From the IMG/VR virus record IMGVR_UViG_3300031774_000009, positions 1 to 62,937 of that record: a stretch of 62,937 nt of DNA. One strand, written 5' to 3'. Both the position numbers and the translations under genes were made by a program. The stretch comes from a virus. Taxonomy: Duplodnaviria > Caudoviricetes. Under the pieces are notes generated by a model that saw nothing but the letters and a program-made list of their open reading frames with translations, made no database searches and was not told the DNA's origin. Shown here piece after piece: positions 1 to 12,681 of the stretch. Each line of letters begins with the position of its first letter. The stretch's first letter is position 1.

Positions 1-90
1 ATAAAAAAACTCGTGCCCGTCCTCAACTACAGCCATCTTGTCTGGAGTCATGTCGCTCCGCTTAAATGTATATGTCTTTACTTCCTGCAT
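1..90 (-). CDS. small early protein, truncated by window edge (MQEVKTYTFKRSDMTPDK...)
   Basis: ATG at 90 lies 9 nt behind TTGACT-N17-TATACT; frame stays open to position 1; not in ORF track. Confidence 0.6.
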   Translation of the reverse strand, partial: MQEVKTYTFKRSDMTPDKMAVVEDGHEFFY

Positions 91-133
91 AACAAAAAAA
101 GTATATCAAATTAAAAAAGAAAAGTCAAGAGGA

Positions 134-412
134 TTACCAGTCGCAGCAGCCACCGTAATCCTCATCTGTCCCCATGCCCGCACTCGCGAGGGCATCCGCG
201 TCCGCTTCCGCGTCCGAGTTAAAACCATCCCATGGCTCAGACTCCTCCTCCTTCTCCGGCCAAACGACATCACCATCAAAGGTGACCTCAGTACCCTCAC
301 GCGAGGCCAAGATGATGGCCTTTTCAAGACCATCGTGAGACCGTGGGAAACCCGCAGCATCGCCGGAGTTGGCGATCTGCACTTTGTACATATTTTCAAA
401 CATATCTCTCAT
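134..412 (-). CDS. acidic early protein ending DADALASAGMGTDEDY
   Basis: 92 aa, about one quarter D/E, MRD start directly behind a sigma70-type promoter. Confidence 0.75.
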   Translation of the reverse strand: MRDMFENMYKVQIANSGDAAGFPRSHDGLEKAIILASREGTEVTFDGDVVWPEKEEESEPWDGFNSDAEADADALASAGMGTDEDYGGCCDW

Positions 413-436
413 AACAAAAAACAGTATATCAGAATC

Positions 437-673
437 TCAGGAAAAAGCAAGCATTAATGTCACTTTTTTACACTTTTTTTCCGCCAGATGCGCAGCCCAT
501 TGCTCGGCGCGTCTTTTGCGATCTTCCATCGCTGCAATCGGAAAATCGCGATCCCGTGCGGTTTGAGGTAAAACAAACACACCGCGTTTGAACTGTTCCC
601 ATGTAGGGCGATCCACTGGGTGAATCGCTTCCCATGCCTTTTTTAACTCTTTTCTTTTCTCTATTTCTCTCAT
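437..673 (-). CDS. small early hypothetical protein (MREIEKRKELKK...)
   Basis: start moved to ATG 673, 10 nt behind TTGCTA-N16-TATAAT with extended TG. Confidence 0.7.
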   Translation of the reverse strand: MREIEKRKELKKAWEAIHPVDRPTWEQFKRGVFVLPQTARDRDFPIAAMEDRKRRAEQWAAHLAEKKCKKVTLMLAFS

Positions 674-753
674 AACAGGAATCATTATAGCACACCCCCC
701 CAAAATAGCAAGCATTATTTTAAAAAAAAATAAAAAAGTTTTTTTATTTTTTA

Positions 754-802
754 CTTGACACGTAACAGTTGCGCGCAACCCCGCTGGCCGTTACGGGTCA
801 AG
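754..802. repeat. 49-bp imperfect palindromic repeat, copy 1
   Basis: CTTGACACGTAACAGTTGCGCGCAACCCCGCTGGCCGTTACGGGTCAAG. Confidence 0.9.
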
Positions 803-814
803 CATTAAAGAGAA

Positions 815-1012
815 TTACTTTTTGCCGAAGCAAAGAGAGCAAGACTCAAAAAACTTACACCAACACAACTCCTCCTCCTCCTCTTTCGCGACCATCTCCG
901 CGTCCTGCGCCTCGATAGCAGCTTGACGCTCCTCTTCACACACAGCCTCAAACTCCGCACGCGCATTTGCGTCCGCCTCGAACACCTCTTCACAACTGAT
1001 ATTATCTCTCAT
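815..1012 (-). CDS. very acidic early protein with C-terminal Cys cluster
   Basis: start moved to ATG 1012 behind TTGACA-N16-TATACT; 65 aa with EEEEE run and CWC...CSLC. Confidence 0.7.
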   Translation of the reverse strand: MRDNISCEEVFEADANARAEFEAVCEEERQAAIEAQDAEMVAKEEEEELCWCKFFESCSLCFGKK

Positions 1013-1093
1013 AACAGGGAACAGTATATCACAACCTTCAGAAATGTCAACCCTTAATATCAATTTTTTTTTATTTTTATTTCTATCTTTTCC

Positions 1094-1142
1094 CTTGACG
1101 CGTAACGGTTCGCGGGCAGGCCGCCGGCCGTTACATGTCAAC
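1094..1142. repeat. 49-bp imperfect palindromic repeat, copy 2
   Basis: CTTGACGCGTAACGGTTCGCGGGCAGGCCGCCGGCCGTTACATGTCAAC. Confidence 0.9.
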
Positions 1143-1162
1143 ACTTTTTTTCATCTTTTCAC

Positions 1163-1193
1163 AAAAAAAACACTCCGCTCTCGCGGAGTGTTT
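1163..1193 (-). terminator. rho-independent terminator
   Basis: AAACACTCCGC-gaga-GCGGAGTGTTT followed by a T-run on the minus strand; near-copy at 4618-4647. Confidence 0.85.
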
Positions 1194-1218
1194 AGTGTTA
1201 TGAGGAGACAAGCAACAG

Positions 1219-1365
1219 TTATGAGGTTGCCAGCTTTTTAAGTTCGGCGAGATTGCCTCTACTTAAAATTTTTATTAAACGTTCAGTCAGTCCACCTTTA
1301 GTGATGATATTTTTAAAATAGCATCTTAAAATTAATTTTTCTTGGCGGTTAAGGTCAGAGATCAT
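1219..1365 (-). CDS. 48-aa hypothetical protein (MISDLNRQEKLILRCYFK...)
   Basis: ATGA overlap with the upstream ORF; below the ORF-track cutoff. Confidence 0.5.
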   Translation of the reverse strand: MISDLNRQEKLILRCYFKNIITKGGLTERLIKILSRGNLAELKKLATS

Positions 1366-1493
1366 CGGAATATCTTTTTTAGCGTACGATTTCTTTTTAA
1401 CCTCGCTTGCATTATAGCGTCATCAATTTTTTTATCAATCAGCTTAAATGCCAAAATAGATTTGCCGCTTCGATTTTTGAATTCAATGTTCAT
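1362..1493 (-). CDS. 43-aa hypothetical protein (MNIEFKNRSGKSIL...)
   Basis: ATGA overlaps on both sides (translational coupling). Confidence 0.5.
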   Translation of the reverse strand: MNIEFKNRSGKSILAFKLIDKKIDDAIMQARLKRNRTLKKIFR

Positions 1494-1966
1494 AGTTTAT
1501 AGAATGCGTGTTGCCCAATTACTTTAACAGGCTTTTGGCCTTTTGCCCAGTATGGAAGTTTTTTCATCCATGTCGCGTGATAGTGGTTAGCATATCCAAC
1601 ATAGTCGCGACTTAATGTTTTCACATTCTTTGCAACGATAATTGCATACTTCGCTTGCGGCACTTTCAACAGATGCTCCAAGTCTTTTAATTTTTTACCG
1701 TTCCAACAACTAAATTGCCATTTTTTAAGGCATACCTCCGAGGGAGTCCGTTTTCTTTCAAATGCTCGTTGAGCAATGACAGCACCCACCGCATACATTC
1801 CCTTTTCCCCTTCGCCTCTGGCTTCCGCCAATATAGTGATTGCGACAATTTTGGTTTCACGACTGAGTTGATGGTTCTTATGTGTGTGGGCATAAACAGA
1901 GTTAACAATTAACAATAATTGAAACGCGAAAGGTATAACACAAAGAGATATAATAAATCTTTTCAT
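1490..1966 (-). CDS. SleB/Hydrolase_2-family cell wall hydrolase with N-terminal signal/anchor
   Basis: TILAEARGEG...AVGAVI..R...QFSCWN...NHYHA...PYWA...IGQHAFYK; start moved to MKRFIISL at 1966. Confidence 0.85.
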   Translation of the reverse strand: MKRFIISLCVIPFAFQLLLIVNSVYAHTHKNHQLSRETKIVAITILAEARGEGEKGMYAVGAVIAQRAFERKRTPSEVCLKKWQFSCWNGKKLKDLEHLLKVPQAKYAIIVAKNVKTLSRDYVGYANHYHATWMKKLPYWAKGQKPVKVIGQHAFYKL

Positions 1967-1967
1967 A

Positions 1968-2204
1968 TTAGAGCCTTGCCTTTCCTTCTTCGATTGGCCA
2001 CATTCCTTCCACCCTATCCATGCGGAACCGCTTGTACTCGCCCGTCTCCATGCACTTGCCGCCGATGCCAGCGAACTTTTCACCGTTAGTGCGATTAGCA
2101 AACGACTCATCCAGTTCGATCTGGTAGCTGTGCATAAGGTTGCCAGTGTTTTCTTCCCCGTCATGTGTGGCGGGCCGATAGTATATGTCGAATATTTCTC
2201 TCAT
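1968..2204 (-). CDS. small WYL-like domain protein
   Basis: C-terminal G.C...GEYKRFRMDRVEGM resembles the WYL R.FR.DRI motif; MRE start behind promoter. Confidence 0.55.
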   Translation of the reverse strand: MREIFDIYYRPATHDGEENTGNLMHSYQIELDESFANRTNGEKFAGIGGKCMETGEYKRFRMDRVEGMWPIEEGKARL

Positions 2205-2245
2205 AACAAAAATTAGTTTAACAGGTTTTTCAATAAAGTCAACAA

Positions 2246-2404
2246 TTATTTTTTATTAGTATTGAGAAGCTTTTGCTTCTCAATGTTGAACTTGGCCACC
2301 TTATGGCGATGGTCTTTGATTGGGTCAAGGAATTTGATCGGGCCATTCAAGACGATTGCCACGTTCAATTCGTGAATTTTCTTCTCTATGTCTATTTCTC
2401 TCAT
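2246..2404 (-). CDS. small early hypothetical protein (MREIDIEKKIHEL...)
   Basis: start moved to ATG 2404 behind TTGACT-N17-TAGACT. Confidence 0.65.
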   Translation of the reverse strand: MREIDIEKKIHELNVAIVLNGPIKFLDPIKDHRHKVAKFNIEKQKLLNTNKK

Positions 2405-2447
2405 AACTTCAAACAGTCTAGCATAGTCTTTTGGTAAAGTCAAGCAC

Positions 2448-2603
2448 TTATTCGCACTCGTGGCATTGGAACCGGTCCAGATCATTCCAGTTTGCAGCCT
2501 CTTCTTGGCTGATCTGAAGTTTCTCGCCGCATCCGCAGCAAGACACTAACACGGGCGACTCTTCGCTAACGAAGACCTCTTCTAGTTCGATTCTATCCCT
2601 CAT
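2448..2603 (-). CDS. acidic zinc-ribbon-like early protein
   Basis: CCGC...CHEC; start at ATG 2603 behind TTGCAA-N16-TATACT. Confidence 0.65.
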   Translation of the reverse strand: MRDRIELEEVFVSEESPVLVSCCGCGEKLQISQEEAANWNDLDRFQCHECE

Positions 2604-2694
2604 AACTGCAAACAGTATAGCACAACCTCCGAAAATTGCAAGCATTATTTTCACTTTTTTTAAAAAACTTTTTTTACTTTTTTTCACTTTTATG

Positions 2695-2743
2695 CTTGAC
2701 ACGTAACGCTTCGCGGGCAGCCCGCCGGCCGTTACATGTCAAC
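2695..2743. repeat. 49-bp imperfect palindromic repeat, copy 3
   Basis: CTTGACACGTAACGCTTCGCGGGCAGCCCGCCGGCCGTTACATGTCAAC. Confidence 0.9.
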
Positions 2744-2770
2744 AATAAAAACGCGTTGCGCGTTTTTATT
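2744..2770. terminator. probable terminator hairpin
   Basis: AATAAAAACGCG-ttg-CGCGTTTTTATT at the end of the lipoprotein gene. Confidence 0.55.
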
Positions 2771-2987
2771 CGGTTTGGTGGTTTAATGTTGTACCAAATC
2801 GGACTAGCATTGTCTTGGGCGTGCCGTCATCTATTGGCTTTAAAAACTTTTGCCATGTAGGCGGATAATATAAAGTAGTCACACCTTTCTTATCAGCAAA
2901 AGAAATTTTCTTATAAACAACTTTCTTTTCAGTAACCACGCAACCAGATAAACAGATTGCACCAACTAAACTAATTATTTTTTTCAT
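2766..2987 (-). CDS. putative lipoprotein
   Basis: MKKIISLVGAICLSGC lipobox-like N-terminus. Confidence 0.6.
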   Translation of the reverse strand: MKKIISLVGAICLSGCVVTEKKVVYKKISFADKKGVTTLYYPPTWQKFLKPIDDGTPKTMLVRFGTTLNHQTE

Positions 2988-2988
2988 A

Positions 2989-3288
2989 TTATTGCATTCG
3001 CTGCGCGTCGACTTTAGTAGCTATTCTTTCCATTATTTTCTTCTGGCCCGACCGTTGGAGCCATAGAGCAAGAGATCTTTCAAACCAGTCTTGTGGCTTG
3101 CGTTCACATTTTACATCCTCCAGCCAACGGTTCAAGTGGTTTGATGTTGTTGGACTATGTTTCTCGTCGGTGCGATAATACTTCAGGCCGACCTTTGCGG
3201 CGACTGGTGTATCGTAGGAGAAGAAAACAGTTGTCCTGTCGCTCAAGTGGAGTTCAGTTTCGTTTAGGCTTATTCGTTTTAGTTTCAT
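2989..3288 (-). CDS. phage hypothetical protein (FSYDTPVAA...SPTTSNHLNRWL)
   Basis: 99-aa ORF in a tightly packed operon; motif of a type common in phage early regions. Confidence 0.7.
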   Translation of the reverse strand: MKLKRISLNETELHLSDRTTVFFSYDTPVAAKVGLKYYRTDEKHSPTTSNHLNRWLEDVKCERKPQDWFERSLALWLQRSGQKKIMERIATKVDAQRMQ

Positions 3289-3290
3289 AA

Positions 3291-3668
3291 TTATTTAATT
3301 AAGGCAATAAAGTAGCGATTAGCAACATCAGCCATTTCCTTATCTTTAGCGTGTTTCTTTCGGGATATCGAGCTAATGTAGTTAAGGATTTCTTCTGTTG
3401 GCTTCTCTTTGTATTTCTCACGAAGGCTCAAGGCCCAATGGAACCAATCTGATTCTACTGTTCTGACTTTACCATTGGCAAAAATTGTTTGAACAAACAT
3501 CTTAAAACCGGGTTCGCTGCGTGTCATGTAGGCGTGGGCGAACTCCTCAATTTTGCCGTTGTCTTCGGGGTTGAGATCGTCAGGCGATTTAGCAGCCATA
3601 GCAACCTTAACGCCTCGCGTCACCAACTGCATACCGTCAATTATTGAGTCTAGGGAAAAAATTGTCAT
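3291..3668 (-). CDS. hypothetical protein
   Basis: 125-aa ORF coupled to its neighbours. Confidence 0.65.
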   Translation of the reverse strand: MTIFSLDSIIDGMQLVTRGVKVAMAAKSPDDLNPEDNGKIEEFAHAYMTRSEPGFKMFVQTIFANGKVRTVESDWFHWALSLREKYKEKPTEEILNYISSISRKKHAKDKEMADVANRYFIALIK

Positions 3669-3868
3669 TTGGTATTACTTGGGGCAAACTGGTTTATTTC
3701 GTAAATGCCGTCCCACTTCTTTTGATGCTTATGTACAGCGAATTCATGTGAGATTAGTTCAAACAAATCTTCGCGTGATTCATGCCCGATGCTTGTTTGC
3801 CCATAGGTGCTGAAGTAGCGAGCAATTTGTTTTCGAATACTTTCTTCAAGTTGTTTCATTTCGTTCAT
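3665..3868 (-). CDS. hypothetical protein
   Basis: 67-aa ORF with ATGA overlaps. Confidence 0.6.
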   Translation of the reverse strand: MNEMKQLEESIRKQIARYFSTYGQTSIGHESREDLFELISHEFAVHKHQKKWDGIYEINQFAPSNTK

Positions 3869-4107
3869 AGTTCGTCACCTCCCCAGTTAGACATAGACAA
3901 TTCACTATTGCCTCCTTCTGGCATTACCTTTTCGATCTTCCATGGCCACGCATTGGAATCAATCACTTGCGCTAGGCTCAATGCATCCATTGAGCCAGAG
4001 TGATCTTTGCCCACCGTGTTGACATATTCTTTTGTATTAACCTCATTAGCATCTAAGTCGTGCCAAGTTAAAACAAACCGCGTTTTCATTACTGAGTCCT
4101 GTATCAT
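3865..4107 (-). CDS. hypothetical protein, paralog of 5970-6212
   Basis: shared TW.D.D.N.V..K...N..G.DHSG...AL..AQ..D.N.WPW..E...WGGD. Confidence 0.75.
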   Translation of the reverse strand: MIQDSVMKTRFVLTWHDLDANEVNTKEYVNTVGKDHSGSMDALSLAQVIDSNAWPWKIEKVMPEGGNSELSMSNWGGDEL

Positions 4108-4120
4108 AACAACAAAGAGA

Positions 4121-4345
4121 TTATCCTATAAATTTTTTTAAAAGTAAAGTACTTTTTTCAAGTTCAGCCAATTTTTTTGGGCTTTTAGTTGGCTTCAGTT
4201 CATTCAAGAAAAGAAGCATGGAAGTTCGAGCAATTGCCTTCTTTAATAGGGGATCGACTTTTGGCGCGACTTTGCGGGTTTTTGGGTAGGTTGTCATGTA
4301 GTCAGCCCAATCAGCGTCAGTCCAATCAGCAAAGGGGCTGCTCAT
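4121..4345 (-). CDS. hypothetical protein
   Basis: 74-aa ORF with ADW repeats at the N-terminus; ATGA overlap with the upstream ORF. Confidence 0.6.
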   Translation of the reverse strand: MSSPFADWTDADWADYMTTYPKTRKVAPKVDPLLKKAIARTSMLLFLNELKPTKSPKKLAELEKSTLLLKKFIG

Positions 4346-4464
4346 TTCGGGTTCCTCCCATAGTAGCCAGCCCGTTGCCGGCGTTGGTGCTTCGGATCAT
4401 TGTTCACAACATAGACGCGCCCATTCAGGGTAATCGTCTCGACTTCTTGTTTCTTATCCCTCAT
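4342..4464 (-). CDS. 40-aa early protein (MRDKKQEVETITLNGRVYVV...)
   Basis: MRD start 10 nt behind TTGCAA-N17-TAGACT; not in ORF track. Confidence 0.65.
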   Translation of the reverse strand: MRDKKQEVETITLNGRVYVVNNDPKHQRRQRAGYYGRNPK

Positions 4465-4546
4465 AACAGAAAACAGTCTACCAGAATCGTTTGAAAATTG
4501 CAAGCACTTTTTTTAAAAAAATAAAAAAACTTTTTTGTCTTTTTTG

Positions 4547-4595
4547 CTTGACACGTAACGCTTGGGCGCCTGCCCGCCGGCCGTTACGCCTCAAG
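4547..4595. repeat. 49-bp imperfect palindromic repeat, copy 4
   Basis: CTTGACACGTAACGCTTGGGCGCCTGCCCGCCGGCCGTTACGCCTCAAG. Confidence 0.9.
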
Positions 4596-4617
4596 CTTTT
4601 TCTTCATTTTTTTACAT

Positions 4618-4647
4618 AAAAAAACACCCCGCTTTCGCGGGGTGTTT
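4618..4647 (-). terminator. rho-independent terminator
   Basis: AAACACCCCGC-gaaa-GCGGGGTGTTT followed by a T-run on the minus strand. Confidence 0.85.
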
Positions 4648-4692
4648 ATGTTATGAGGTATGACAGACAACACGCACACACAAACGAGGTTA

Positions 4693-4977
4693 TTACACCT
4701 CGGAAATTTTTTGTTTAAACTCCGCAAGTGCTTTCCGTATTTTAACACTTGCCGCAGCATCCATGGCGATGCTGCGTTTTGAGCCACGCAACCGATGAAG
4801 AAAGTCTGTTGCTTCGCGGGTGATGTTCTTCTTGACCATCCGCTTTTGGCCCTCCGCTTGGAGTTTATCGCTGCGCTTCATCTTTTTGCGCGTTAATGAT
4901 TTTGTTTTACTCATTTCTTCTTCTTCTTCTTCTTTAAACTCTTGGCACAACTTTTGCCATTCATTGTAATCTAACAT
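4693..4977 (-). CDS. hypothetical charged protein
   Basis: 94-aa ORF, acidic N-terminus followed by a basic helical region. Confidence 0.6.
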   Translation of the reverse strand: MLDYNEWQKLCQEFKEEEEEEMSKTKSLTRKKMKRSDKLQAEGQKRMVKKNITREATDFLHRLRGSKRSIAMDAAASVKIRKALAEFKQKISEV

Positions 4978-4984
4978 TTTAAAT

Positions 4985-5388
4985 AAAATGGTGGTTGGAC
5001 TATTTGTTTACCAACAACTTTTCGGCTTCCAAATCAAATTTTCAGATTTACCTACTTCGTACCCATCCAGACTACCCTCTGCCACTTGGCCGTCGAGCTT
5101 GTCCAGTTGTCGCCTTAACGCCTTGGATGCGTTTATTCAGCCACACCGATCTCACTCCGTCGAGCGAGAAAATTAATTAAGTTGCTGCCGCACCACCAGC
5201 AGTTATAAGTTTCATTAGCATATGATATGAAACAATTAACGGGCGTGAACTTTCAACTGTGTCGTGCGCACGAGACAGATTCACAGGGGTATTTAACTCC
5301 GTCAACTTAAATTCAAAGAGCGTCTGGGATTGACTAGCATTGCATTCCTGCCCTAGTCTTTTACATCGGCCCAGCCCGATGTATATGG
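4985..5388 (-). ncRNA. candidate structured non-coding RNA region
   Basis: ~400 bp with no convincing minus-strand ORF inside a dense operon; several hairpins (4994-5015, 5117-5133, 5150-5169, 5209-5233, 5257-5278, 5362-5383). Confidence 0.45.
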
Positions 5389-5604
5389 TTAGCTTACCAA
5401 CTCCAGATGATTAATCTGGGAGATGTTAAACCGGCGTATGCCGTGACTCTCGCCATCAGCAAATTTATACCCCTTAATGTGGTCAGGGTGTCTCTCGGTA
5501 ATGGCCACGGTGTATTCCTTGGTCATCCCGTCCTTGCGCTCATAGTTCACATGGTAGCGCGGCGCATTATCGATTTGGTTCATTATTTCTTCGTTTGTCA
5601 TCAT
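5389..5604 (-). CDS. small WYL-like domain protein
   Basis: YHVNYERKDG...GIRRFNISQINHLELV; promoter TTGACA-N17-TAGACT at ~5648-5676. Confidence 0.55.
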   Translation of the reverse strand: MMTNEEIMNQIDNAPRYHVNYERKDGMTKEYTVAITERHPDHIKGYKFADGESHGIRRFNISQINHLELVS

Positions 5605-5683
5605 AACTTGATTTTCTGTCTTGTGGTTCTTCCGAACCGCTGCAAGTAGTCTACCTGCTAGGCGGCGTAATGTCAACCCCTTT

Positions 5684-5956
5684 TTAATCTTTTTTTCCAT
5701 ACTTAAAAGCGGCTTGGTCAGCAGCAGTACGCAGATGTCCGCGATCAACGGGCTGGCCTTTGGTATTATGTGTCTGCATAGCAAAGTGTTTGTACCCTCT
5801 GTCGAAGTCTTCTTTAAGGCCATGCATATCTTCTGTGGTTATACTGCCCATACCTTCGATCCGTTCTGTCTCAGTAGCTTTACGCTCACTAAAGTCTTTA
5901 TGGCCGAGATTGCGTTGATGTGCTTCGAATCCGTTATTGTTCATGTTATTACTCAT
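5684..5956 (-). CDS. hypothetical protein
   Basis: 90-aa ORF. Confidence 0.6.
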   Translation of the reverse strand: MSNNMNNNGFEAHQRNLGHKDFSERKATETERIEGMGSITTEDMHGLKEDFDRGYKHFAMQTHNTKGQPVDRGHLRTAADQAAFKYGKKD

Positions 5957-5969
5957 ACTAATTTAAAAT

Positions 5970-6212
5970 TTATCCACAAGTAGGGAAGAGTCTACCATTA
6001 CCCATTTGATCACCACCCCAGCCATGCGCTACCTCTGTACCATCTTCCTCAAGTACCCATGGCCACATATTAGTATCAGCCTGTTGAGCTATTGCCAGAG
6101 CTTCATCCATGCCAGAGTGGTCAACGCCTTCCTTGTTGGTGAAGTCTTTACTGCTAACACGATTGGAGTCTTCATCTTTCCAAGTGATTGTGTATGTCTT
6201 TCTATCTCTCAT
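5970..6212 (-). CDS. hypothetical protein, paralog of 3865-4107
   Basis: start moved to MRD at 6212 behind TTGACA-N17-TAAGCT; DHSG/WPW/WGGD motifs. Confidence 0.75.
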   Translation of the reverse strand: MRDRKTYTITWKDEDSNRVSSKDFTNKEGVDHSGMDEALAIAQQADTNMWPWVLEEDGTEVAHGWGGDQMGNGRLFPTCG

Positions 6213-6225
6213 AACTGGATATAGC

Positions 6226-6408
6226 TTACCTGATTTCTTTTGCTTTGTCAACTTCTTTGTTATCCCACTCGAAGGGGATCTCATCCCCTTTGAGTGATGG
6301 CTCAGGCGCACCGCAAGAGTTGTTGTTGCAGTGAGGGCCAAGGTAGTGGGAGGTGTTAGCATTTAGTCCATGGAATCTGTAAGTTTGTGTCTGTGTGCAA
6401 TATGTCAT
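6226..6408 (-). CDS. small hypothetical protein
   Basis: 60 aa; ATG 10 nt behind TTGACT-N17-AATAAT. Confidence 0.55.
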   Translation of the reverse strand: MTYCTQTQTYRFHGLNANTSHYLGPHCNNNSCGAPEPSLKGDEIPFEWDNKEVDKAKEIR

Positions 6409-6454
6409 AACTAAAAAAATTATTATCTATTTGAATCTTAAAGTCAATTACTTT

Positions 6455-6727
6455 TTAATAATTGTCTTTGTGGAATCTTCCTTTGGGTGTTCTATCTTCA
6501 AAGCATTTAGTGATCTCAACTACTTCAACCATGTCACCAGTCTTTTCATTATTATTCACATCAGAATCGAGGAATTGCTTTATCATCTCTTCTTCAGATG
6601 TTCCTAGTGGGTATGTATTACCCATTGAGGAATTAGTGCGAGCGAGGTAATGACCGCCTTTGTAGTTTGGATTCCTTCTTAATTTGAAGGTTACGTTTAG
6701 GAAGTTTATGTATTCTGTATCTCTCAT
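6455..6727 (-). CDS. early hypothetical protein (MRDTEYINF...)
   Basis: start moved to 6727 behind TTGACT-N17-TTTAAT. Confidence 0.65.
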   Translation of the reverse strand: MRDTEYINFLNVTFKLRRNPNYKGGHYLARTNSSMGNTYPLGTSEEEMIKQFLDSDVNNNEKTGDMVEVVEITKCFEDRTPKGRFHKDNY

Positions 6728-6776
6728 ATCAACTGCGTATATTAAACCATACTTTTTTAACAAAGTCAACACCTTT

Positions 6777-7010
6777 TTACAGGCTGTCGACCATTTCTTC
6801 GACGACGTATTCGTGCCATGCGTCCACTGTGTGCTGTACAGTGTATTTATCCACAAAGCATTCGCGAACTATTTCGCTTTCCTTTTCGGCGTTGATATCG
6901 CCGAAACCCAGTTCCCAGTATTCGCATCGTGCTGCGACCTCGTTGAAGAACACTTTCCAAGAGTTTGTCAGAATGTCTGACTCGTATTTCATCTCTTTCA
7001 TATCTCTCAT
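6777..7010 (-). CDS. acidic early protein (MRDMKEMKYESD...)
   Basis: start moved to 7010 behind TTGTAT-N16-TATCCT. Confidence 0.65.
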   Translation of the reverse strand: MRDMKEMKYESDILTNSWKVFFNEVAARCEYWELGFGDINAEKESEIVRECFVDKYTVQHTVDAWHEYVVEEMVDSL

Positions 7011-7090
7011 CTGAAAAAAGGATAGCAGAACCACAGAAAAATACAAGCTAAATCGACAAAATAATTCATTTTAATTTAGCCCCTATTCTG

Positions 7091-7106
7091 GCAGGTTCCA
7101 TGCCAA
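7091..7106 (-). promoter_or_regulatory. possible sigma54 (-24/-12) promoter facing the early region
   Basis: minus strand TTGGCATGGAACCTGC, GG-N10-GC spacing. Confidence 0.35.
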
Positions 7107-7268
7107 CCCCCCCCATTTTTTGAAATTTTAGAGTATTCTTTTGTTATAATAACGGCCGGGGGTGGTATTTTTCAATATTGCCACCCAAACTGAACAAAAC
7201 AAAAATTTAGTAAATTAAAAAAATCGGCGGCCCTATTTAAATTCAAACAAAAAAATATATAATCAACG

Positions 7269-8024
7269 ATGATCATCTCTAATCCTCAATACGACTGGCG
7301 CGAAAGCAACTGTAAAACTTTCGGTATGGAGGGCATAGACGAATATTTATACGAAAATTATTTAAAAAATATTGAAAAAGGGTTTTATATAGAATGCGGG
7401 GCCGCTAATGGAATAGAACAAAGCAATACCGCCGCTCTTAATTTTCATTATGGATGGAAAGGTCTTTTGATTGAACCCAATCCTTTTCAATACAAAAATA
7501 TGTCAAAACTAAGACACGATTGTTTTGCTTCTAATTGCGCTCTTGTATCCCATGAATACACAGAAGATTACATAGAAGGTTTTTTTGGCGCAGACCCGCG
7601 CTACCTTCAGGGACCAATACCCCTCTCTGAAATCAAACATTTATTAGAAAATAAGGAAGAGCTTGCTTTATACAATAACGCACCTCAAGATGCGATGTGC
7701 GGTCAAATCAAAACAAACCATGATTACGACAAAAAAAGATATTCAGATTCTACGCAAGCCCTTGAGGTGCCTGCGAAAACATTAGATTGGGTTTTGGACT
7801 CCTATGCAATAAAAAAGGCTGACTTTTTCTCGTTAGATGTGGAAGGATATGAAGTGGAAGTATTAAAAGGTTGGTCTCCCTTCAAATACCCGATTCGATA
7901 CGTCTTGATTGAAACACCATCAGAATCAAGCGTTAAAAACGACATTATTAAACAATACATGACACAACATCATTATAAAATTGAAGAAAAAATACAACAC
8001 AACACATTGTATTCTTTATCTTAA
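7269..8024 (+). CDS. FkbM-family methyltransferase
   Basis: GFYIECGAANGIEQSNT...WKGLLIEPNP...DFFSLDVEGYEVEVLKG. Confidence 0.9.
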   Translation: MIISNPQYDWRESNCKTFGMEGIDEYLYENYLKNIEKGFYIECGAANGIEQSNTAALNFHYGWKGLLIEPNPFQYKNMSKLRHDCFASNCALVSHEYTEDYIEGFFGADPRYLQGPIPLSEIKHLLENKEELALYNNAPQDAMCGQIKTNHDYDKKRYSDSTQALEVPAKTLDWVLDSYAIKKADFFSLDVEGYEVEVLKGWSPFKYPIRYVLIETPSESSVKNDIIKQYMTQHHYKIEEKIQHNTLYSLS

Positions 8025-8067
8025 AATTTTCCTTGACAATCCAAGCGACAGCAAACAAACTACTCAC

Positions 8068-8880
8068 ATGACGAAGTTATATTCATTTTGTGCAATTATT
8101 ATTACCACCGTTTCTTTAACGGCCGGACCAACCATAACCCACGGAACATCAACTTATACTTTAGTTAATGATAAGCCATACACATGGCATGAAGCAAAAG
8201 TTAAAGCAGAAAGTTTAGGAGGACATTTAGCAACAATAACCTCTAAAGAAGAAAATGATGTTGTTTTCAATAAATTAAATTTAAATGGTCTGAATCCATG
8301 GCTTGGAGCTACAGATGAAAAATCTGAAGGTCAATGGCGTTGGATTACAGGAGAAACATGGACTTATACCAATTGGGGTGGCCATGGTAATGATAATGCC
8401 AATGGCAATGAACACTACCTTCATTTTCATGCTTATTTCCCTTCTCAATGGGGTGACCACAAATCAGTGATGTTTCACACTGTCGGTGACGGCAAGGGGT
8501 GTTTTATATTAGAGACACCACACAAACAAATTATTAACAATAAACCAAATACGTATGAATTAACAAAATTTATTCCTTCTGGTTTTTCTATGATACAAAT
8601 ACCCTTCTCGTATCAAAATAATTCTATACAGGCTATTTTCGGGGCTGGCCATGATTTTGTGATATATGAATATACTTTCACAAAAGACTTTTTTCACGGC
8701 GAATGGGTAATTAACGCTTACGACTCTGACTTTGAGGAATGGGACTATCCATCACATGTTTTACCTGCCGGCACGGCAGTTTGGATACTAAATAATTCTC
8801 CCTTTGTTAAAATGATAGAATTCAAGGGTCACATCCCTAAAAATTGGAAAAACGTAAAATCCACTGTAAGAATTCCTTAA
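8068..8880 (+). CDS. secreted C-type lectin domain protein
   Basis: signal-like N-terminus; TWHEAK..AESLGGHLATITSKEEN...WLGATD..SEGQWRWITGE.W.YTNW; start moved to ATG 8068 behind TTGACA-N17-CAAACT. Confidence 0.8.
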   Translation: MTKLYSFCAIIITTVSLTAGPTITHGTSTYTLVNDKPYTWHEAKVKAESLGGHLATITSKEENDVVFNKLNLNGLNPWLGATDEKSEGQWRWITGETWTYTNWGGHGNDNANGNEHYLHFHAYFPSQWGDHKSVMFHTVGDGKGCFILETPHKQIINNKPNTYELTKFIPSGFSMIQIPFSYQNNSIQAIFGAGHDFVIYEYTFTKDFFHGEWVINAYDSDFEEWDYPSHVLPAGTAVWILNNSPFVKMIEFKGHIPKNWKNVKSTVRIP

Positions 8881-11263: not shown

Positions 11264-11628
11264 TGGAGTTTCATTCGTATTTAAAACAGCTTAGACTAGT
11301 ACGGTTTAAGGACACCAAAAAACTATGCATGATGCTGGGTGTCTCAAAACAGGAATGGCGCAAAATTGAACGCGGAATAAACCCTCCTCCCCGAAGATCG
11401 CTATTAAACAAGTTTTGCGTTTTGACAGCCGCCTTAAGCTATGAACAGGCTCAGCTTTTTGCATTGGCTAAAAAATGGAAACCTCACGCAGACACAAATA
11501 CAGATAATCATATCTTATTAGACCCGAAGTCTAGAGCTATAGATTTCCCCTCTATACAAGAATGGAGAGAAGCCATGATAAAAGAAAATACCCCAGACTA
11601 CGAACACAAGCACTGGGGGAGGCGATGA
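11263..11628 (+). CDS. XRE-like helix-turn-helix protein
   Basis: FHSYLKQLRL...LCMMLGVSKQEWRKIERGINPPP. Confidence 0.65.
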   Translation: MEFHSYLKQLRLVRFKDTKKLCMMLGVSKQEWRKIERGINPPPRRSLLNKFCVLTAALSYEQAQLFALAKKWKPHADTNTDNHILLDPKSRAIDFPSIQEWREAMIKENTPDYEHKHWGRR

Positions 11629-11664
11629 ATTGTTAGATTTGGTTAAACAAAGAGTAAACTCACG

Positions 11665-12681
11665 ATGAAAATAGCATTTATAGATTTTTGGCCTAATTTT
11701 GAATTAGAGAATAATTATTTTTTTTATTTATTGAAGGATTCTTATAATTTGGAGATTAATCAAGTTGATCCAGATTTAATGTTTCTTCATACAGACTCTT
11801 ACCGCTTTTGCCATAGAAAAGAGTTTGTTGACCATCCGGCCACTCGAGTTTTTTGGACCATGGAAGGGGAACCTCCTAATTTTGAAGTTGATACCTATCC
11901 ACCCGACTTAAGTATAATAACCACGGGAGGTAAAGGCTACAATGACCCCAACTCTCAATTAACCAAACAATCAACCGATTTTTCAAGAAAATATTATTAC
12001 GGTCGTTGTGATTTTGCTTTAACTCATGAAGTCATGGACGATAGCCGTCATTATCGTTTTCCATATTGGGTTTATCATATTGATTGGTTCAATAAAGGAG
12101 ATTATGGAGGAGAACCAAATTATTTAGTGCGTGAAAATGAGATAAGCAATAATGTTTATTACAATACAGCTAAAACTAAATTTTGTGCAATTTTTATGAG
12201 TAATCCTACCTGTCAAAGATTAGAAGCATACAATAAGCTTAGTACATATAAACAAGTAGATGGTTATGGAAATAGTTTTAAGAGGGAGGCTGTCAGCCGC
12301 AATAAGTTTCAGGGAGTTAATGATCCGTGGGAAAAAAGAAAATTAGAAGTTTTAAAAGACTATCGTTTTTCAATTTGTTTTGAACATCAAGTAAGAGATG
12401 GTTATCATTCAGAAAAATTATTTCATGCAAAGGTAGCAGGTACAATTCCAATTTATTGGGGAGCCTCTACTGTTTCACAAGATTTTAATCCGGACTGTTT
12501 TATTAATTTAAATGATTTTGATTCAGTTGATGCTATGTTAGAAAGAGTCAAAGAAATCGATCAAAATGAAACTCTTTATCAGCAGTACGCTCAAGCCCCA
12601 TTATTCGTAGACAATAAAGTGCCTGATAAATTTAAGCCCGATGCTGTTTTAAACTTTTTTACAAATACTGTTTTAGCTTAA
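11665..12681 (+). CDS. glycosyltransferase family 10 (alpha-1,3/4-fucosyltransferase-like)
   Basis: KFCAIFMSNP...YRFSICFEH...GYHSEKLFHAKVAGTIPIYWG. Confidence 0.9.
   Translation: MKIAFIDFWPNFELENNYFFYLLKDSYNLEINQVDPDLMFLHTDSYRFCHRKEFVDHPATRVFWTMEGEPPNFEVDTYPPDLSIITTGGKGYNDPNSQLTKQSTDFSRKYYYGRCDFALTHEVMDDSRHYRFPYWVYHIDWFNKGDYGGEPNYLVRENEISNNVYYNTAKTKFCAIFMSNPTCQRLEAYNKLSTYKQVDGYGNSFKREAVSRNKFQGVNDPWEKRKLEVLKDYRFSICFEHQVRDGYHSEKLFHAKVAGTIPIYWGASTVSQDFNPDCFINLNDFDSVDAMLERVKEIDQNETLYQQYAQAPLFVDNKVPDKFKPDAVLNFFTNTVLA

Follow-up and report, generated by a model that had tools for sequence, protein, structure and literature searches.

The host-takeover module of phage SPO1 packs many early promoters and small genes annotated without function densely together, as does the locus described here. 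T4-type phages carry promoter-early stem-loop (PeSL) cassettes, which in the accounts of Arbiol et al. 2010 (PMC2839356) and Comeau et al. 2014 (PMC4122927) are multiple copies of strong early promoters of sigma70-like type, with an AT-rich tract upstream and often a stable stem-loop, cluster among small ORFan genes, and hold the insertion, deletion and replacement junctions between close relatives; in these respects our locus resembles them. It also resembles the P-N25 promoter of phage T5, with its A-rich upstream tract, TTGCTT -35 element, near-consensus -10 and purine-rich initial transcribed sequence (ITS) containing TGAGAGA at +8 to +14, and the small pre-early genes with their own promoters packed in about 10 kb at the T5 genome end. 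The native N25 ITS is reported in PMC12464699 to favour promoter escape, with output about 10-fold lower for a pyrimidine-rich 'anti' version.

The array and its promoter cassettes

We analysed the Caudoviricetes phage record IMGVR_UViG_3300031774_000009 as a window of 62,937 b (the whole stretch of DNA examined; completeness estimate 43%). Our best reading, held jointly with the promoter mechanism set out below at slightly better than even confidence, is that the phage is a large, uncultured marine one of siphovirus-like type, and that positions 1 to about 7,050 form its early-gene ('host-takeover'-like) array, in which copies of one strong sigma70-type promoter cassette would drive a row of tiny genes (Table 1). 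The terminase and portal proteins matched Bacillus phages only, at 22-27% identity, and a search of the array DNA against the phage collection found no DNA match. The only RNA-labelled runs for this sequence were assembled contigs of low share, which carry no weight as evidence, and no transcript 5' end was seen.

The sequence ATGAGRGA occurs exactly at ten minus-strand gene starts (412, 673, 1012, 2204, 2404, 2603, 4464, 6212, 6727 and 7010), as the earlier note had listed. These are 10 of only 12 matches in the window, the other two (51283 and 55566, plus strand) lying out of frame inside long ORFs; shuffled sequences gave 3.90 ± 2.09 matches and at least 12 in 0 of 100 shuffles. Eight of the ten starts read GTTATGAGRGA, with GTT replaced by GAT at 6727 and by CAG at 7010, and the mechanical ORF list mis-extends eight of the ten genes upstream. 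All ten starts have a promoter of their own, and with three additional ones at 90, 4107 and 6408, which read GTT-ATG without AGRGA, the self-promoted genes number 13 rather than the note's twelve. The encoded proteins are mostly unrelated, as had been claimed, since 82 promoter-adjacent ORFs from the window and its relatives fall into 25 BLAST families; some are nevertheless paralogues, for example those starting at 4107 and 6212 (38% identity).

All 13 starts have a -35/-10 pair, preceded at the -10 by TGn (extended -10) in 10 of 13. The -10 hexamer lies 10 nt from the ATG in nine, and 8, 9, 12 and 13 nt away in one each, in agreement with the earlier estimate. A generic promoter scan of positions 1-8000 returned 31 promoter-like sites against 15.1 ± 3.7 in shuffles. 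Each cassette runs from an A-rich upstream tract through a -35 of the TTGAC/TTGCA type, TGn and a -10 close to TATACT to a 7-nt pyrimidine-rich discriminator and the almost invariant G-T-T-A-T-G-A-G-R-G-A-W-A. Across 70 unique instances, G at -3 was kept in 67, T at -2 in 63, T at -1 in 64 and A at +10 in 65, and positions -10 to -4 of the same copies vary freely. The stem-loop at 752..804 lies upstream of an A/T-rich tract and the promoter of gene 437-673. The manA-like RNA motif sits within the array but outside the header.

Table 1. Features of the array. Gap, distance in nt from the -10 hexamer to the start codon; type A, cassette with the ATGAGRGA header.
Feature	Position	Strand	Details
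Cassette of truncated gene 1-90 (MQEV...)	81..128	-	-35 TTGACT 123-128; TGn + TATACT 100-105; gap 9; GTT-ATG-CAG-GAA, without AGRGA
Type-A cassette, gene 134-412 (92 aa, MRDMFENMY...)	403..450	-	-35 TTGCTT; TGn + TATACT; gap 10
Type-A cassette, gene 437-673 (78 aa, MREIEKRK...)	664..711	-	
Stem-loop	752..804	-	arms TTGAC..GTAACGG / CGTTAC..GTCAA; -26.9 kcal/mol, z -3.5
Type-A cassette, gene 815-1012 (65 aa, MRDNISCEEVFE...)	1003..1050	-	
Stem-loop, family of 752..804	1093..1143	-	-24.9 kcal/mol; upstream of gene 815-1012 promoter
Intrinsic terminator	1168-1193		precedes stem-loop 1093..1143
Type-A cassette, gene 1968-2204 (78 aa)	2195..2242	-	operon 1968-2204, 1490-1966 (Hydrolase_2 cell-wall hydrolase), 1362-1493, 1219-1365
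Type-A cassette, gene 2246-2404 (52 aa, MREIDIEKK...)	2395..2443	-	
Type-A cassette (AGG form), gene 2448-2603 (51 aa)	2594..2641	-	
Stem-loop	2696..2742	-	-27.9 kcal/mol; upstream of gene 2448-2603 promoter
Terminator-like hairpin	2744-2770		precedes stem-loop 2696..2742
Weaker cassette, gene 3865-4107	4098..4148	-	TTTACT / GATAAT, gap 12; GTT-ATG-ATA-CAG, without AGRGA; then heads 3665-3868, 3291-3668, 2989-3288, 2766-2987
Type-A cassette (AGG form), gene 4342-4464 (40 aa)	4455..4503	-	next gene 4121-4345, own GGGAGGA site
Stem-loop	4546..4596	-	-31.2 kcal/mol; upstream of gene 4342-4464 promoter
Intrinsic terminator	4622-4647		precedes stem-loop 4546..4596
manA-like RNA motif	4984..5169	-	immediately 5' of gene 4693-4977; RF01745, E 1.9e-10, 49.1 bits (gathering score 55.2)
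Sole leadered promoter of array, gene 5389-5604	5604..5676	-	TTGACA 5671-5676; TAGACT 5648-5653
Type-A cassette, gene 5970-6212 (80 aa, MRDRKTYTITW...)	6203..6251	-	then 5684-5956; paralogue of 3865-4107
Cassette, gene 6226-6408 (60 aa)	6399..6447	-	TTGACT / AATAAT, gap 10; GTT-ATG-ACA-TAT, without AGRGA
Cassette, header shifted 3 nt, gene 6455-6727 (90 aa)	6718..6769	-	GTT-GAT-ATG-AGA-GAT, gap 13
Outermost cassette, gene 6777-7010 (77 aa)	7001..7046	-	TTGTAT / TATCCT, gap 8; CAG-ATG-AGA-GAT

A header-pattern search matched 21 contigs; five appear to be chance matches, and in the 16 other IMG/VR contigs the promoter and start cassette likewise heads arrays of small ORFan genes. In a 144,418-b relative (completeness estimate 90%), all 12 exact headers fall within 130,982-139,073 and the reversed-pattern control gave none. 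The header is constant and the cargo variable across these 16 contigs, which bears out the proposal that promoter and start form one portable unit. The homologue of truncated gene 1-90 in one relative starts MREMKTYKF and has the full header, and the homology of gene 2246-2404 to relative G004 begins at its ATG. The same G004 carries an identical start of the leader of gene 5389-5604, which by a position-7/8 start-site rule would be about 35-40 nt long and open with a GGTTC-GGAA-GAACC hairpin.

The conserved block is kept as nucleotides and moves with the promoter

The earlier note had called the shared start a 5'-coding tag. As an N-terminal protein signal (degron, localisation, block to Met removal), M-R-D/E would account for the 66 of 75 promoter-adjacent ATG genes that encode M-R and the 66 of 75 with D or E next. 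Codon 2 of these 75 genes, however, is AGA in 52, AGG in 14, AGY in four and another codon in five. None of the 66 arginines is CGN, though CGN makes up 53-72% of Arg codons elsewhere (AGR 287/612 in 38 large ORFs, 26/94 in array gene bodies), and the four AGY variants retain AG as serine. A second header (type B), GTG-AGT-GAG-AGA, contains the TGAGAGA word in another frame, so that identical bases are translated as S-E-R. Among 13 promoter-linked GTG cases, the frame of the first GTG is open for at least 22 codons in all 13 and the other frame is closed in 12, and in two type-B cargoes no alternative start codon precedes the conserved residues. Cargo homologues that lie operon-internally or behind a longer leader lack M-R-D/E: one cargo reads MNTT... 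with a long leader and MRDT... with the header, and an operon-internal MSNN... is the counterpart of MRDT... behind a promoter. These codon and frame data already contradict a protein tag, which we regard as extremely improbable; the block is conserved as nucleotides, read in two frames, and moves with the promoter and not with the cargo. Within the cargo family of gene 6455-6727, 65 of the 71 cluster representatives returned had a recognisable core and were counted, and they comprise 52 type A, 12 type B and one other start. The position of the 7001..7046 cassette is occupied by a GTG-type header in contigs of other strains.

We scanned the window and its relatives with a position weight matrix (threshold 12) blind to everything 3' of the -10. 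Of the 84 promoters returned, 27 were the matches through which the loci had been fetched; in 55 of the 57 others a reading frame of at least 35 codons begins with an ATG or GTG 5-14 nt downstream of the -10. ATGAGRGA follows 34 of the 57, a by-catch estimate rather than an unbiased census, as header-bearing promoters served to train the matrix and header matches to fetch the loci. In 22 promoters that are not type A, purines occupy a fraction of 0.73-0.95 at positions 13-17 counted from the -10, against 0.57 in gene bodies. All promoters of this class have a purine run some 13-18 nt past the -10, irrespective of the start codon.

Junctions between relatives lie at the edges of the block. Between two close relatives (G001 and G002), homology stops immediately 3' of ...GTTATGAGAGA and is restored from the next promoter on; the intervening 52-aa cargo of one has a 57-aa replacement in the other. 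A two-gene insertion is flanked by two identical headers, and another breakpoint falls inside the -35. Because the breakpoints sit either at the 3' boundary of the header or within the -35 element, the suggestion that the cassette is a homology block for swapping cargo has direct comparative support. These breakpoints would also suit a block with no function of its own, in which cassettes descend from one ancestral promoter copy, stay uniform through recombination or gene conversion, and spread cargo by homology. A tandem header (MRERVMRDT, in L022 and database proteins) and a variant in one low-depth contig, which omits 448-798 and joins the ends over 10 shared letters, point the same way. 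We nonetheless judge this very improbable: in the same copies -10 to -4 vary and -3 to +10 are fixed, contigs with only 55-75% identity in their cargo still share the block, and type B retains the purine word after a different start.

Predicted 5' ends and the role of the block

Start-site use in E. coli is given in PMC5730371 as 8, 55, 29 and 7% at positions 6, 7, 8 and 9 after the -10, with a purine preferred at +1 and a pyrimidine at -1, and pyrimidine-rich discriminators moving the start downstream. Because of these published rules we predict that transcripts begin with the G of GTT, position 8 and 3 nt before the ATG; the leader would be about 3 nt for the ATG header and 0-1 nt for the GTG header, in which translation must begin 7 nt after the -10 hexamer. 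All start-site and escape rules applied here are those of E. coli RNA polymerase, which may not be the host's. The term 'near-leaderless' used for these genes thus stands as a prediction. The absence of Shine-Dalgarno (SD) sites is real and not distinctive, as 31 of 38 large ORFs elsewhere also lack an SD-like word; among 10 internal array genes read by eye, only two (3868 and 4345) have a GGAGG-type site.

The account we lean towards, by a little, is that the cassette is an early promoter like T5 P-N25, with the start codon lying inside its conserved purine-rich ITS. The invariant block would be the start site plus ITS, with the start codon merely embedded. Transcripts would begin GUUAUGAGRGA or, for the second header, GUGAGUGAGAGA, and the GA/GG-rich stretch at about +6 to +11 may allow rapid escape from a very tightly bound promoter. 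Translation would start at the 5'-proximal AUG or GUG without SD pairing, which this phage hardly uses anywhere; M-R-D/E would be a by-product, and the repeated cassette would serve secondarily as homology where cargo genes are gained, lost and replaced. GG and GA near +6 are reported to promote escape (PMC5961368). The same source names TG at +5/+6 as the dinucleotide most harmful to escape, which is where a start at G would put the TG of the embedded ATG. Also against this reading, TGAGRGA begins 8, 11 or 12 nt after the -10 rather than at one distance, the motif is always 0-3 nt after the start codon, which a translational role fits equally, and the retention of GTT over ATG at the start site gets no explanation.

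Such a translational role, as first suggested, would be a ribosome-read signal making a 5'-terminal or near-terminal AUG or GUG efficient in a host that barely uses SD pairing. In both header types the start codon is immediately followed by the motif, no SD lies upstream in a phage that is SD-poor as a whole, a -10-like word is also present 5-14 nt ahead of the ATG of several late genes, mRNAs with GUG starts only 7 nt from the -10 would be truly leaderless, and 5'-end structure is weak (mean -2.7 kcal/mol over 43 nt). However, the motif stands at +2 in the AUG form and +6 in the GUG form, and therefore has no fixed register with the P-site codon. A GCG variant (L039/L040) has its ATG some 30 nt downstream of a retained GAGGGAA block, a second leadered promoter shows only a purine-rich run at the block position, and the accessibility gain is small (-2.7 against -3.3 to -3.6 kcal/mol in random or CGN controls). 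We know of no ribosomal partner for GAGRGA 3' of a start codon. In the Caulobacter reporters of PMC8459731 even leaders of 1-3 nt reduce leaderless initiation, so that a constant 3-nt leader is sub-optimal where measured, and the idea of an optimised leaderless signal is not supported. We consider a ribosome-read signal unlikely, though of some weight.

The shared 5' end might instead be bound or cleaved by one phage or host factor that switches early genes off jointly, acting on RNA or on DNA (an operator overlapping +1). T4 offers a precedent in RegB, which cleaves early mRNAs at GGAG, and in RegA, which binds around the start codons of early genes, and here one invariant 11-13-nt word, more tightly conserved than the adjoining discriminator, would mark the 5' end of the majority of the clade's early transcripts. 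Five records, among them the one estimated 90% complete, yielded no member of the RegA (PF01818) or RegB (PF10715) families in searches run without a positive control. The word lacks palindromic symmetry, and its exact form is missing from 21 of 55 by-catch promoter-adjacent genes and 3 of 13 in this window, which would therefore escape such control. We rate this proposal as quite improbable.

Comparison with known systems

SPO1 genes have strong Shine-Dalgarno sites, unlike those of our array, and to our knowledge share no coding start. Leaderless mRNAs (lambda cI; actinobacterial, Caulobacter and archaeal) resemble the predicted transcripts in having the start codon at or near the 5' end, no SD, and a strong preference for AUG with a GUG minority; we know of no fixed downstream word common to them, unlike the header here. 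They also differ in that our main form would always have a 3-nt GUU leader, and leaders of that length lower initiation in the reporters of PMC8459731.

The T5 resemblance extends to the purine-rich ITS with TGAGAGA, whose escape role was measured for T5 (PMC12464699). The T5 purine run, however, occupies +8 to +18 and also serves as the SD for a gene starting at +25, whereas ours is predicted to run from about +5 and forms part of the coding sequence. No sequence relationship between the two phages is detectable, and the T5 pre-early genes lie at a genome end, which need not hold for our array. PeSLs belong to T4-like phages and ours to a siphovirus-like one; as described in PMC2839356 and PMC4122927 they end with an SD and a separate start codon, whereas our cassettes have no SD and a stem-loop at only 4 of 13, about 95-125 nt upstream. 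The conserved part here extends through the start codon into codons 2-4, and the swap junction therefore lies inside the coding sequence.

Promoters, headers and exchange junctions of the array

The ATGAGRGA starts listed in the earlier note proved real: the word occurs 12 times in the window against 3.9 ± 2.1 in shuffled sequences, and 10 of the 12 are the listed minus-strand starts. Each start does have its own promoter, as had been claimed, but once the strand was read and the sites measured the self-promoted genes numbered 13, not twelve. Their -35 elements are TTGACn, TTGCnn or a weaker form, the spacers are 16-17 nt and the -10 hexamers lie near TATACT, with TGn directly before them in 10 of 13. 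The Bacteroidota-type promoter is TAnnTTTG, which does not fit the array sequences. The gap from -10 to ATG is 10 nt in nine genes and 8, 9, 12 and 13 nt once each. GTT stands directly 5' of the ATG in 11 of the 13; at three starts (90, 4107 and 6408) GTT-ATG is kept and the AGRGA that completes the type-A header, (GTT)-ATG-AGRGA, is absent. The absence of a Shine-Dalgarno (SD) sequence at header starts was confirmed, with the ATG 8-13 nt after the -10, and an SD-like word is also missing upstream of 31 of the 38 large ORFs in the window. The mechanical ORF list runs upstream through the promoter for 8 of the 10 header genes, as had been noticed earlier. A Pfam scan of the array's 23 complete genes, without the truncated gene 1-90, gave one match above the curated cut-off, to the cell-wall hydrolase Hydrolase_2, and one further sub-threshold match.

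The array holds a single clearly leadered promoter (Table), and the hairpin at the 5' end of its transcript may be a stabilising stem-loop. SD-like words are almost absent genome-wide. At nine or more middle/late genes GTGTAAT/GTGTAAA or TGTATAAT precedes the ATG by 5-14 nt, and these words may mark another class of promoters, one whose leaders are very short.

An IMG/VR scan with part of the cassette, that is, of the promoter plus header, returned 29 loci on 21 contigs, some of them near-duplicates. On 16 of the 21 the headers are promoter-linked and the ORFs of their arrays, 40-100 aa long, vary in cargo; the other five carry single matches without a promoter, which look like chance. Exact headers numbered 7, 6, 12 and 5 in four records searched whole, with none in the reversed control, and all 12 in the 90%-complete, 144-kb record fall inside 8 kb. 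A logo of 70 unique instances comprises an A-rich tract from -58 to -52, the -35, TG, the -10, a variable pyrimidine-rich stretch, G(-3)TT and ATGAGRGA (G(-3) in 67, the two T positions in 63 and 64, A at +10 in 65).

A promoter scan with less ASCERTAINMENT bias, in which only -40 to -11 was scored and downstream sequence was inspected afterwards, covered the whole window and 14 loci. At threshold 12 it found 84 unique promoters, 27 of which were the matches that had fetched the loci. Of the remaining 57, 55 have an ATG or GTG 5-14 nt past the -10 that opens at least 35 codons, and 34 have ATGAGRGA. At laxer thresholds, matches with no adjacent start made up 13 of 101 (threshold 10) and 34 of 127 (threshold 8); both false and leadered promoters are probably among them. 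BLAST sorts the promoter-adjacent ORFs into 25 families, 16 of which have header members.

The junctions between homologous and unrelated sequence were compared in two close relatives, G001 and G002 (whole IMG/VR records, 84-97% identical in shared blocks). Homology breaks off immediately behind GTTATGAGAGA and is found again from the next promoter on, a 52-aa cargo being swapped for an unrelated one of 57 aa, and a two-gene insertion is bounded by identical headers. Two of the junctions lie at the 3' edge of a header and the third inside a -35. Of the homology blocks shared by the window and a further relative, G004, one starts at the ATG of gene 2246-2404 and another at the GTT of gene 5970-6212. 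A tandem header at one locus (Table) looks like a scar of recombination between headers. Single low-depth contigs weakly suggest variants in other samples, one skipping 448-798 and others with a type-B header (GTG-AGT-GAG-AGA) before the homologue of gene 6777-7010. The proposals of a portable promoter-plus-start unit, constant while its cargo varies, and of a homology block for cargo swapping were thus borne out, the former by the 16 contigs and the latter by the G001/G002 junctions. An array as terminal repeat was rejected: no second array copy was found in the 144-kb record (G003), and arrays lie close to the contig end in some records and mid-contig in others.

The header as a nucleotide element and its predicted role

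Codon 2 was tallied in 75 promoter-adjacent ATG genes: 52 have AGA, 14 AGG, 4 AGT or AGC, 5 another codon and none CGN. AGR makes up 47% of Arg codons in the 38 large ORFs and 28% in the array gene bodies. Codon 3 is GAT, GAA or GAG in 66 of the 75, G-A being fixed and the residue alternating between D and E. The type-B header, GTG-AGT-GAG-AGA-A.., has its GTG 7 nt after the -10; it was met first in the blind scan and then gathered from IMG/VR. In all 13 promoter-linked GTG cases the frame of the first GTG runs for 22 codons or more with no stop, the other frame is closed in 12 of them, and two type-B cargoes have no other start codon ahead of residues conserved with type-A homologues. By this codon and frame evidence TGAGAGA is read M-R-D/E in type A and S-E-R in type B.

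The M-R-D/E residues track promoter context, not cargo. The family of gene 6455-6727 yielded 71 cluster representatives, of which the 65 with a recognisable core were counted: 52 have type A, 12 type B and one another start. A cargo that begins MRDTFDNLSCEE... behind the header begins MNTTFDNLSCEE... at a site that has GCG in place of the GTG and, behind it, a leader of about 30 nt; the internal window gene 5684-5956 begins MSNNMNNNGFEAHQ... and its promoter-led relative MRDTNTNNNGAFEPHQ...; and the window paralogues at 6212 and 4107 show the same header-dependent N-terminal difference. A protein tag is contradicted by the lack of CGN at codon 2, by the reading of the same bases in two frames and by residues that follow context: the conserved block, GTT-ATG-AGR-GA-W-A, is a nucleotide element. 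In 16 or more unrelated early-gene families the proteins begin M-R-D/E or M-S-E-R only because the first codons fall within the conserved, predicted initial transcribed region. This is a clear case from nature in which the sequence of a promoter limits that of a protein. Gene callers mis-start header genes, and many database entries translate the promoter.

Where transcripts begin can be predicted from the rules of E. coli RNA polymerase, which, in the cited part of one study, uses positions 6, 7, 8 and 9 past the -10 for 8, 55, 29 and 7% of starts, favours a purine at +1 and a pyrimidine at -1, and is shifted downstream by pyrimidine-rich discriminators (PMC5730371). In the 70 instances position 7 is A in 23, C in 25, T in 22 and G in none, position 8 is the conserved G and positions 9-10 are T-T. 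By these rules, from which the host polymerase may differ, type-A mRNAs are predicted to begin GUUAUGAGRGA, with leaders of 3-4 nt, and type-B mRNAs would have leaders of 0-1 nt, their 5' end lying at the GUG or one base before. The coding evidence for type B independently requires a start no later than the G of the GUG. Four RNA-labelled runs were rejected as evidence of starts, strands or levels: they are assembled contigs with a 5-10% share, some probably of DNA, and the depth of one, X18, stems from low-complexity A/T matches.

In the 22 promoters without a type-A header the purine fraction is 0.73-0.95 at positions 13-17 past the -10, against 0.57 in gene bodies, whether the start is ATG, GTG or further downstream; being independent of start type, the purine run is a property of the promoter class. 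The parallel studied in most depth is the phage T5 early promoter P-N25, whose record has an A-rich upstream tract, a TTGCTT -35, a TATAAT -10 and TGAGAGA at +8 to +14. Its native purine-rich initial transcribed sequence (ITS) speeds promoter escape, and a pyrimidine-rich 'anti' ITS lowers productive output about 10-fold, according to the section cited (PMC12464699); a high-throughput study, in the passage cited, finds that GG and GA near +6 favour escape (PMC5961368). Taken together, the purine run, the P-N25 parallel and the GG/GA effect make it most likely that the block would be a start site plus escape-tuned ITS in which the start codon is embedded, a reading drawn from the rules of E. 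coli polymerase, from which the host's may differ. Against it, the embedded ATG places TG near +5/+6, where the same passage describes TG as harmful to escape (PMC5961368), the distance of the purine word from the -10 is not rigid, and the word always abuts the start codon.

A translational role of the block at the start is a live rival. It accords with the rarity of SD sites throughout the phage and with the -10-like words that stand 5-14 nt ahead of the ATG in several late genes. On the other side, leaderless initiation works less than optimally with a 3-nt leader in the systems covered by the cited part of one report (PMC8459731), and the block hardly alters predicted accessibility. The header is not a proven leaderless enhancer. 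In the most far-reaching form of the rival, which we regard as improbable, the header would be a standardised 5'-end start module, the purine word directly behind a 5'-proximal AUG (3-nt leader) or 5'-terminal GUG serving by itself as an initiation signal for the ribosome or a phage factor. If true, a whole clade of large phages would run and exchange its early genes through this module in a marine host that barely uses SD, and the module, joined as it is to a promoter, would be an initiation element of a new type.

Two other explanations were rejected. Structure avoidance has too small an effect to be the reason for the block, and GAGRGA does not act as an SD for a downstream ATG, because many headers have no second ATG and the spacing in MRDM starts is only 1-2 nt. 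No homologue of RegA (PF01818) or RegB (PF10715) matched in any of five records, a weak negative given that control genomes gave no match either.

The phage and its host

The window record is linear, 62,937 b long and 43% complete by CheckV estimate. From its gene content (terminase, a 2,273-aa tape measure, lambda-J-like tail proteins, PhoH, a glycosyltransferase and an FkbM-type methyltransferase; PHROG matches for the tape measure, tail proteins and terminase) it is judged a fragment of a large siphovirus-like phage. No cultured-phage DNA matched it among 50,697 records and none was found for a capsid-like ORF; protein matches are remote, the terminase and portal matching only Bacillus phages at 22-27% identity. 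No tRNA genes were found. For the first 7.3 kb, 87-95% of sampled words are present in marine metagenomes of three further studies, besides ten possible source runs.

A scan of genome contigs yielded no prophage: eight of the matches are one conserved archaeal gene. The remaining match, a 2.7-kb contig binned in a Methyloligella MAG (L045), bears a header cassette of the usual kind (MRDTFDNLSCEE...); this contig is probably a phage fragment put into the wrong bin and is no evidence for the host. Marine gammaproteobacteria, cyanobacteria and cyanophages are known to carry the manA-like motif, and its occurrence in the array (Table) may be a hint at the host. Homologues of a C-type lectin domain protein encoded just past the array adjoin the arrays of L015 and L041, and the ammonium transporter encoded near the array in two relatives (Table) is an unusual auxiliary gene in a phage.

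Features of the window, or of the relatives named, with their positions; the middle/late genes are those with a -10-like word before the ATG
Feature	Position	Strand	Details
manA-like RNA motif	4984-5169	(-)	Directly 5' of gene 4693-4977; RF01745 at 49.1 bits, below the gathering score of 55.2; E 1.9e-10
Leadered promoter	5604-5653	(-)	Transcript begins with a GGTTC-GGAA-GAACC hairpin, kept in L041 (G004)
C-type lectin domain protein	7981-8880	(+)	PF00059, E 1e-12; adjoins the FkbM-type methyltransferase
Full-length ammonium transporter	L039 (G001) 11343-12557	(+)	PF00909, E 3e-116; also in G002; few kb from array
Tandem header	L022 868-897	(+)	GTTATGAGAGAAAGA then GTTATGAGAGAT, giving MRERVMRDT...; also in database proteins (P0006, P0008)
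Palindromic stem-loop	752-804	(-)	~50 nt
Palindromic stem-loop	1093-1143	(-)	~50 nt
Palindromic stem-loop	2696-2742	(-)	~50 nt
Palindromic stem-loop	4546-4596	(-)	~50 nt
Related repeats	G003 131.9-143.2 kb		~100 nt, at 10 further places
Middle/late gene	10847		
Middle/late gene	19606	(-)	
Middle/late gene	20787		
Middle/late gene	26549		
Middle/late gene	28596		
Middle/late gene	32579		
Middle/late gene	36670	(-)	
Middle/late gene	38471		
Middle/late gene	55384		

Comparison with known systems

Literature searches on leaderless phage early genes yielded no shared promoter-plus-start header, a weak negative. The closest likeness is to the promoter-early stem-loop (PeSL) cassettes of T4-type phages, which, in the parts of the two papers cited, couple a stem-loop to a strong early promoter whose upstream tract is AT-rich, cluster among ORFans and mediate modular shuffling (PMC2839356, PMC4122927). 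Here too a sigma70-like early promoter with an AT-rich tract upstream is repeated (13 cassettes; A-rich from -58 to -52, n=70), and indel or replacement junctions of close relatives fall inside cassettes. PeSL cassettes end in an SD and a separate start codon, whereas here the SD is absent, the start and first codons lie inside the conserved part and a second in-frame header type exists; the PeSL carrier is a T4-like myovirus, and here it is siphovirus-like with no cultured relative found.

Stem-loops of -25 to -31 kcal/mol number four, at only 4 of the 13 cassettes, and are placed on the far side of the AT tract, upstream and outside the promoter; an intrinsic terminator hairpin stands in front of three cassettes. 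The palindromes (Table) form one family, in which the outer arms are conserved and resemble a -35 (TTGAC) and the GC-rich centres vary; downstream of each come about 45 nt of A/T and then a header promoter.

With leaderless mRNAs the array genes share the lack of an SD and an AUG or GUG at the predicted 5' end, and with P-N25 a near-consensus -35/-10, an upstream A tract and a purine-rich predicted ITS. The original observation is confirmed and generalised and its first interpretation partly right. What emerges is an abundant marine phage clade in which most genes seem to be expressed with no SD and with leaders very short or absent, which constrains the possible host, and the cassette is a compact, testable part, with promoter and start in about 60 nt. 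It works like a PeSL cassette combined with a T5-type promoter and a leaderless-type start, and is not a member of the T4 element family; the idea of mobile regulatory cassettes thereby extends past T4-like phages, to a form whose exchange junction is internal to the coding sequence.
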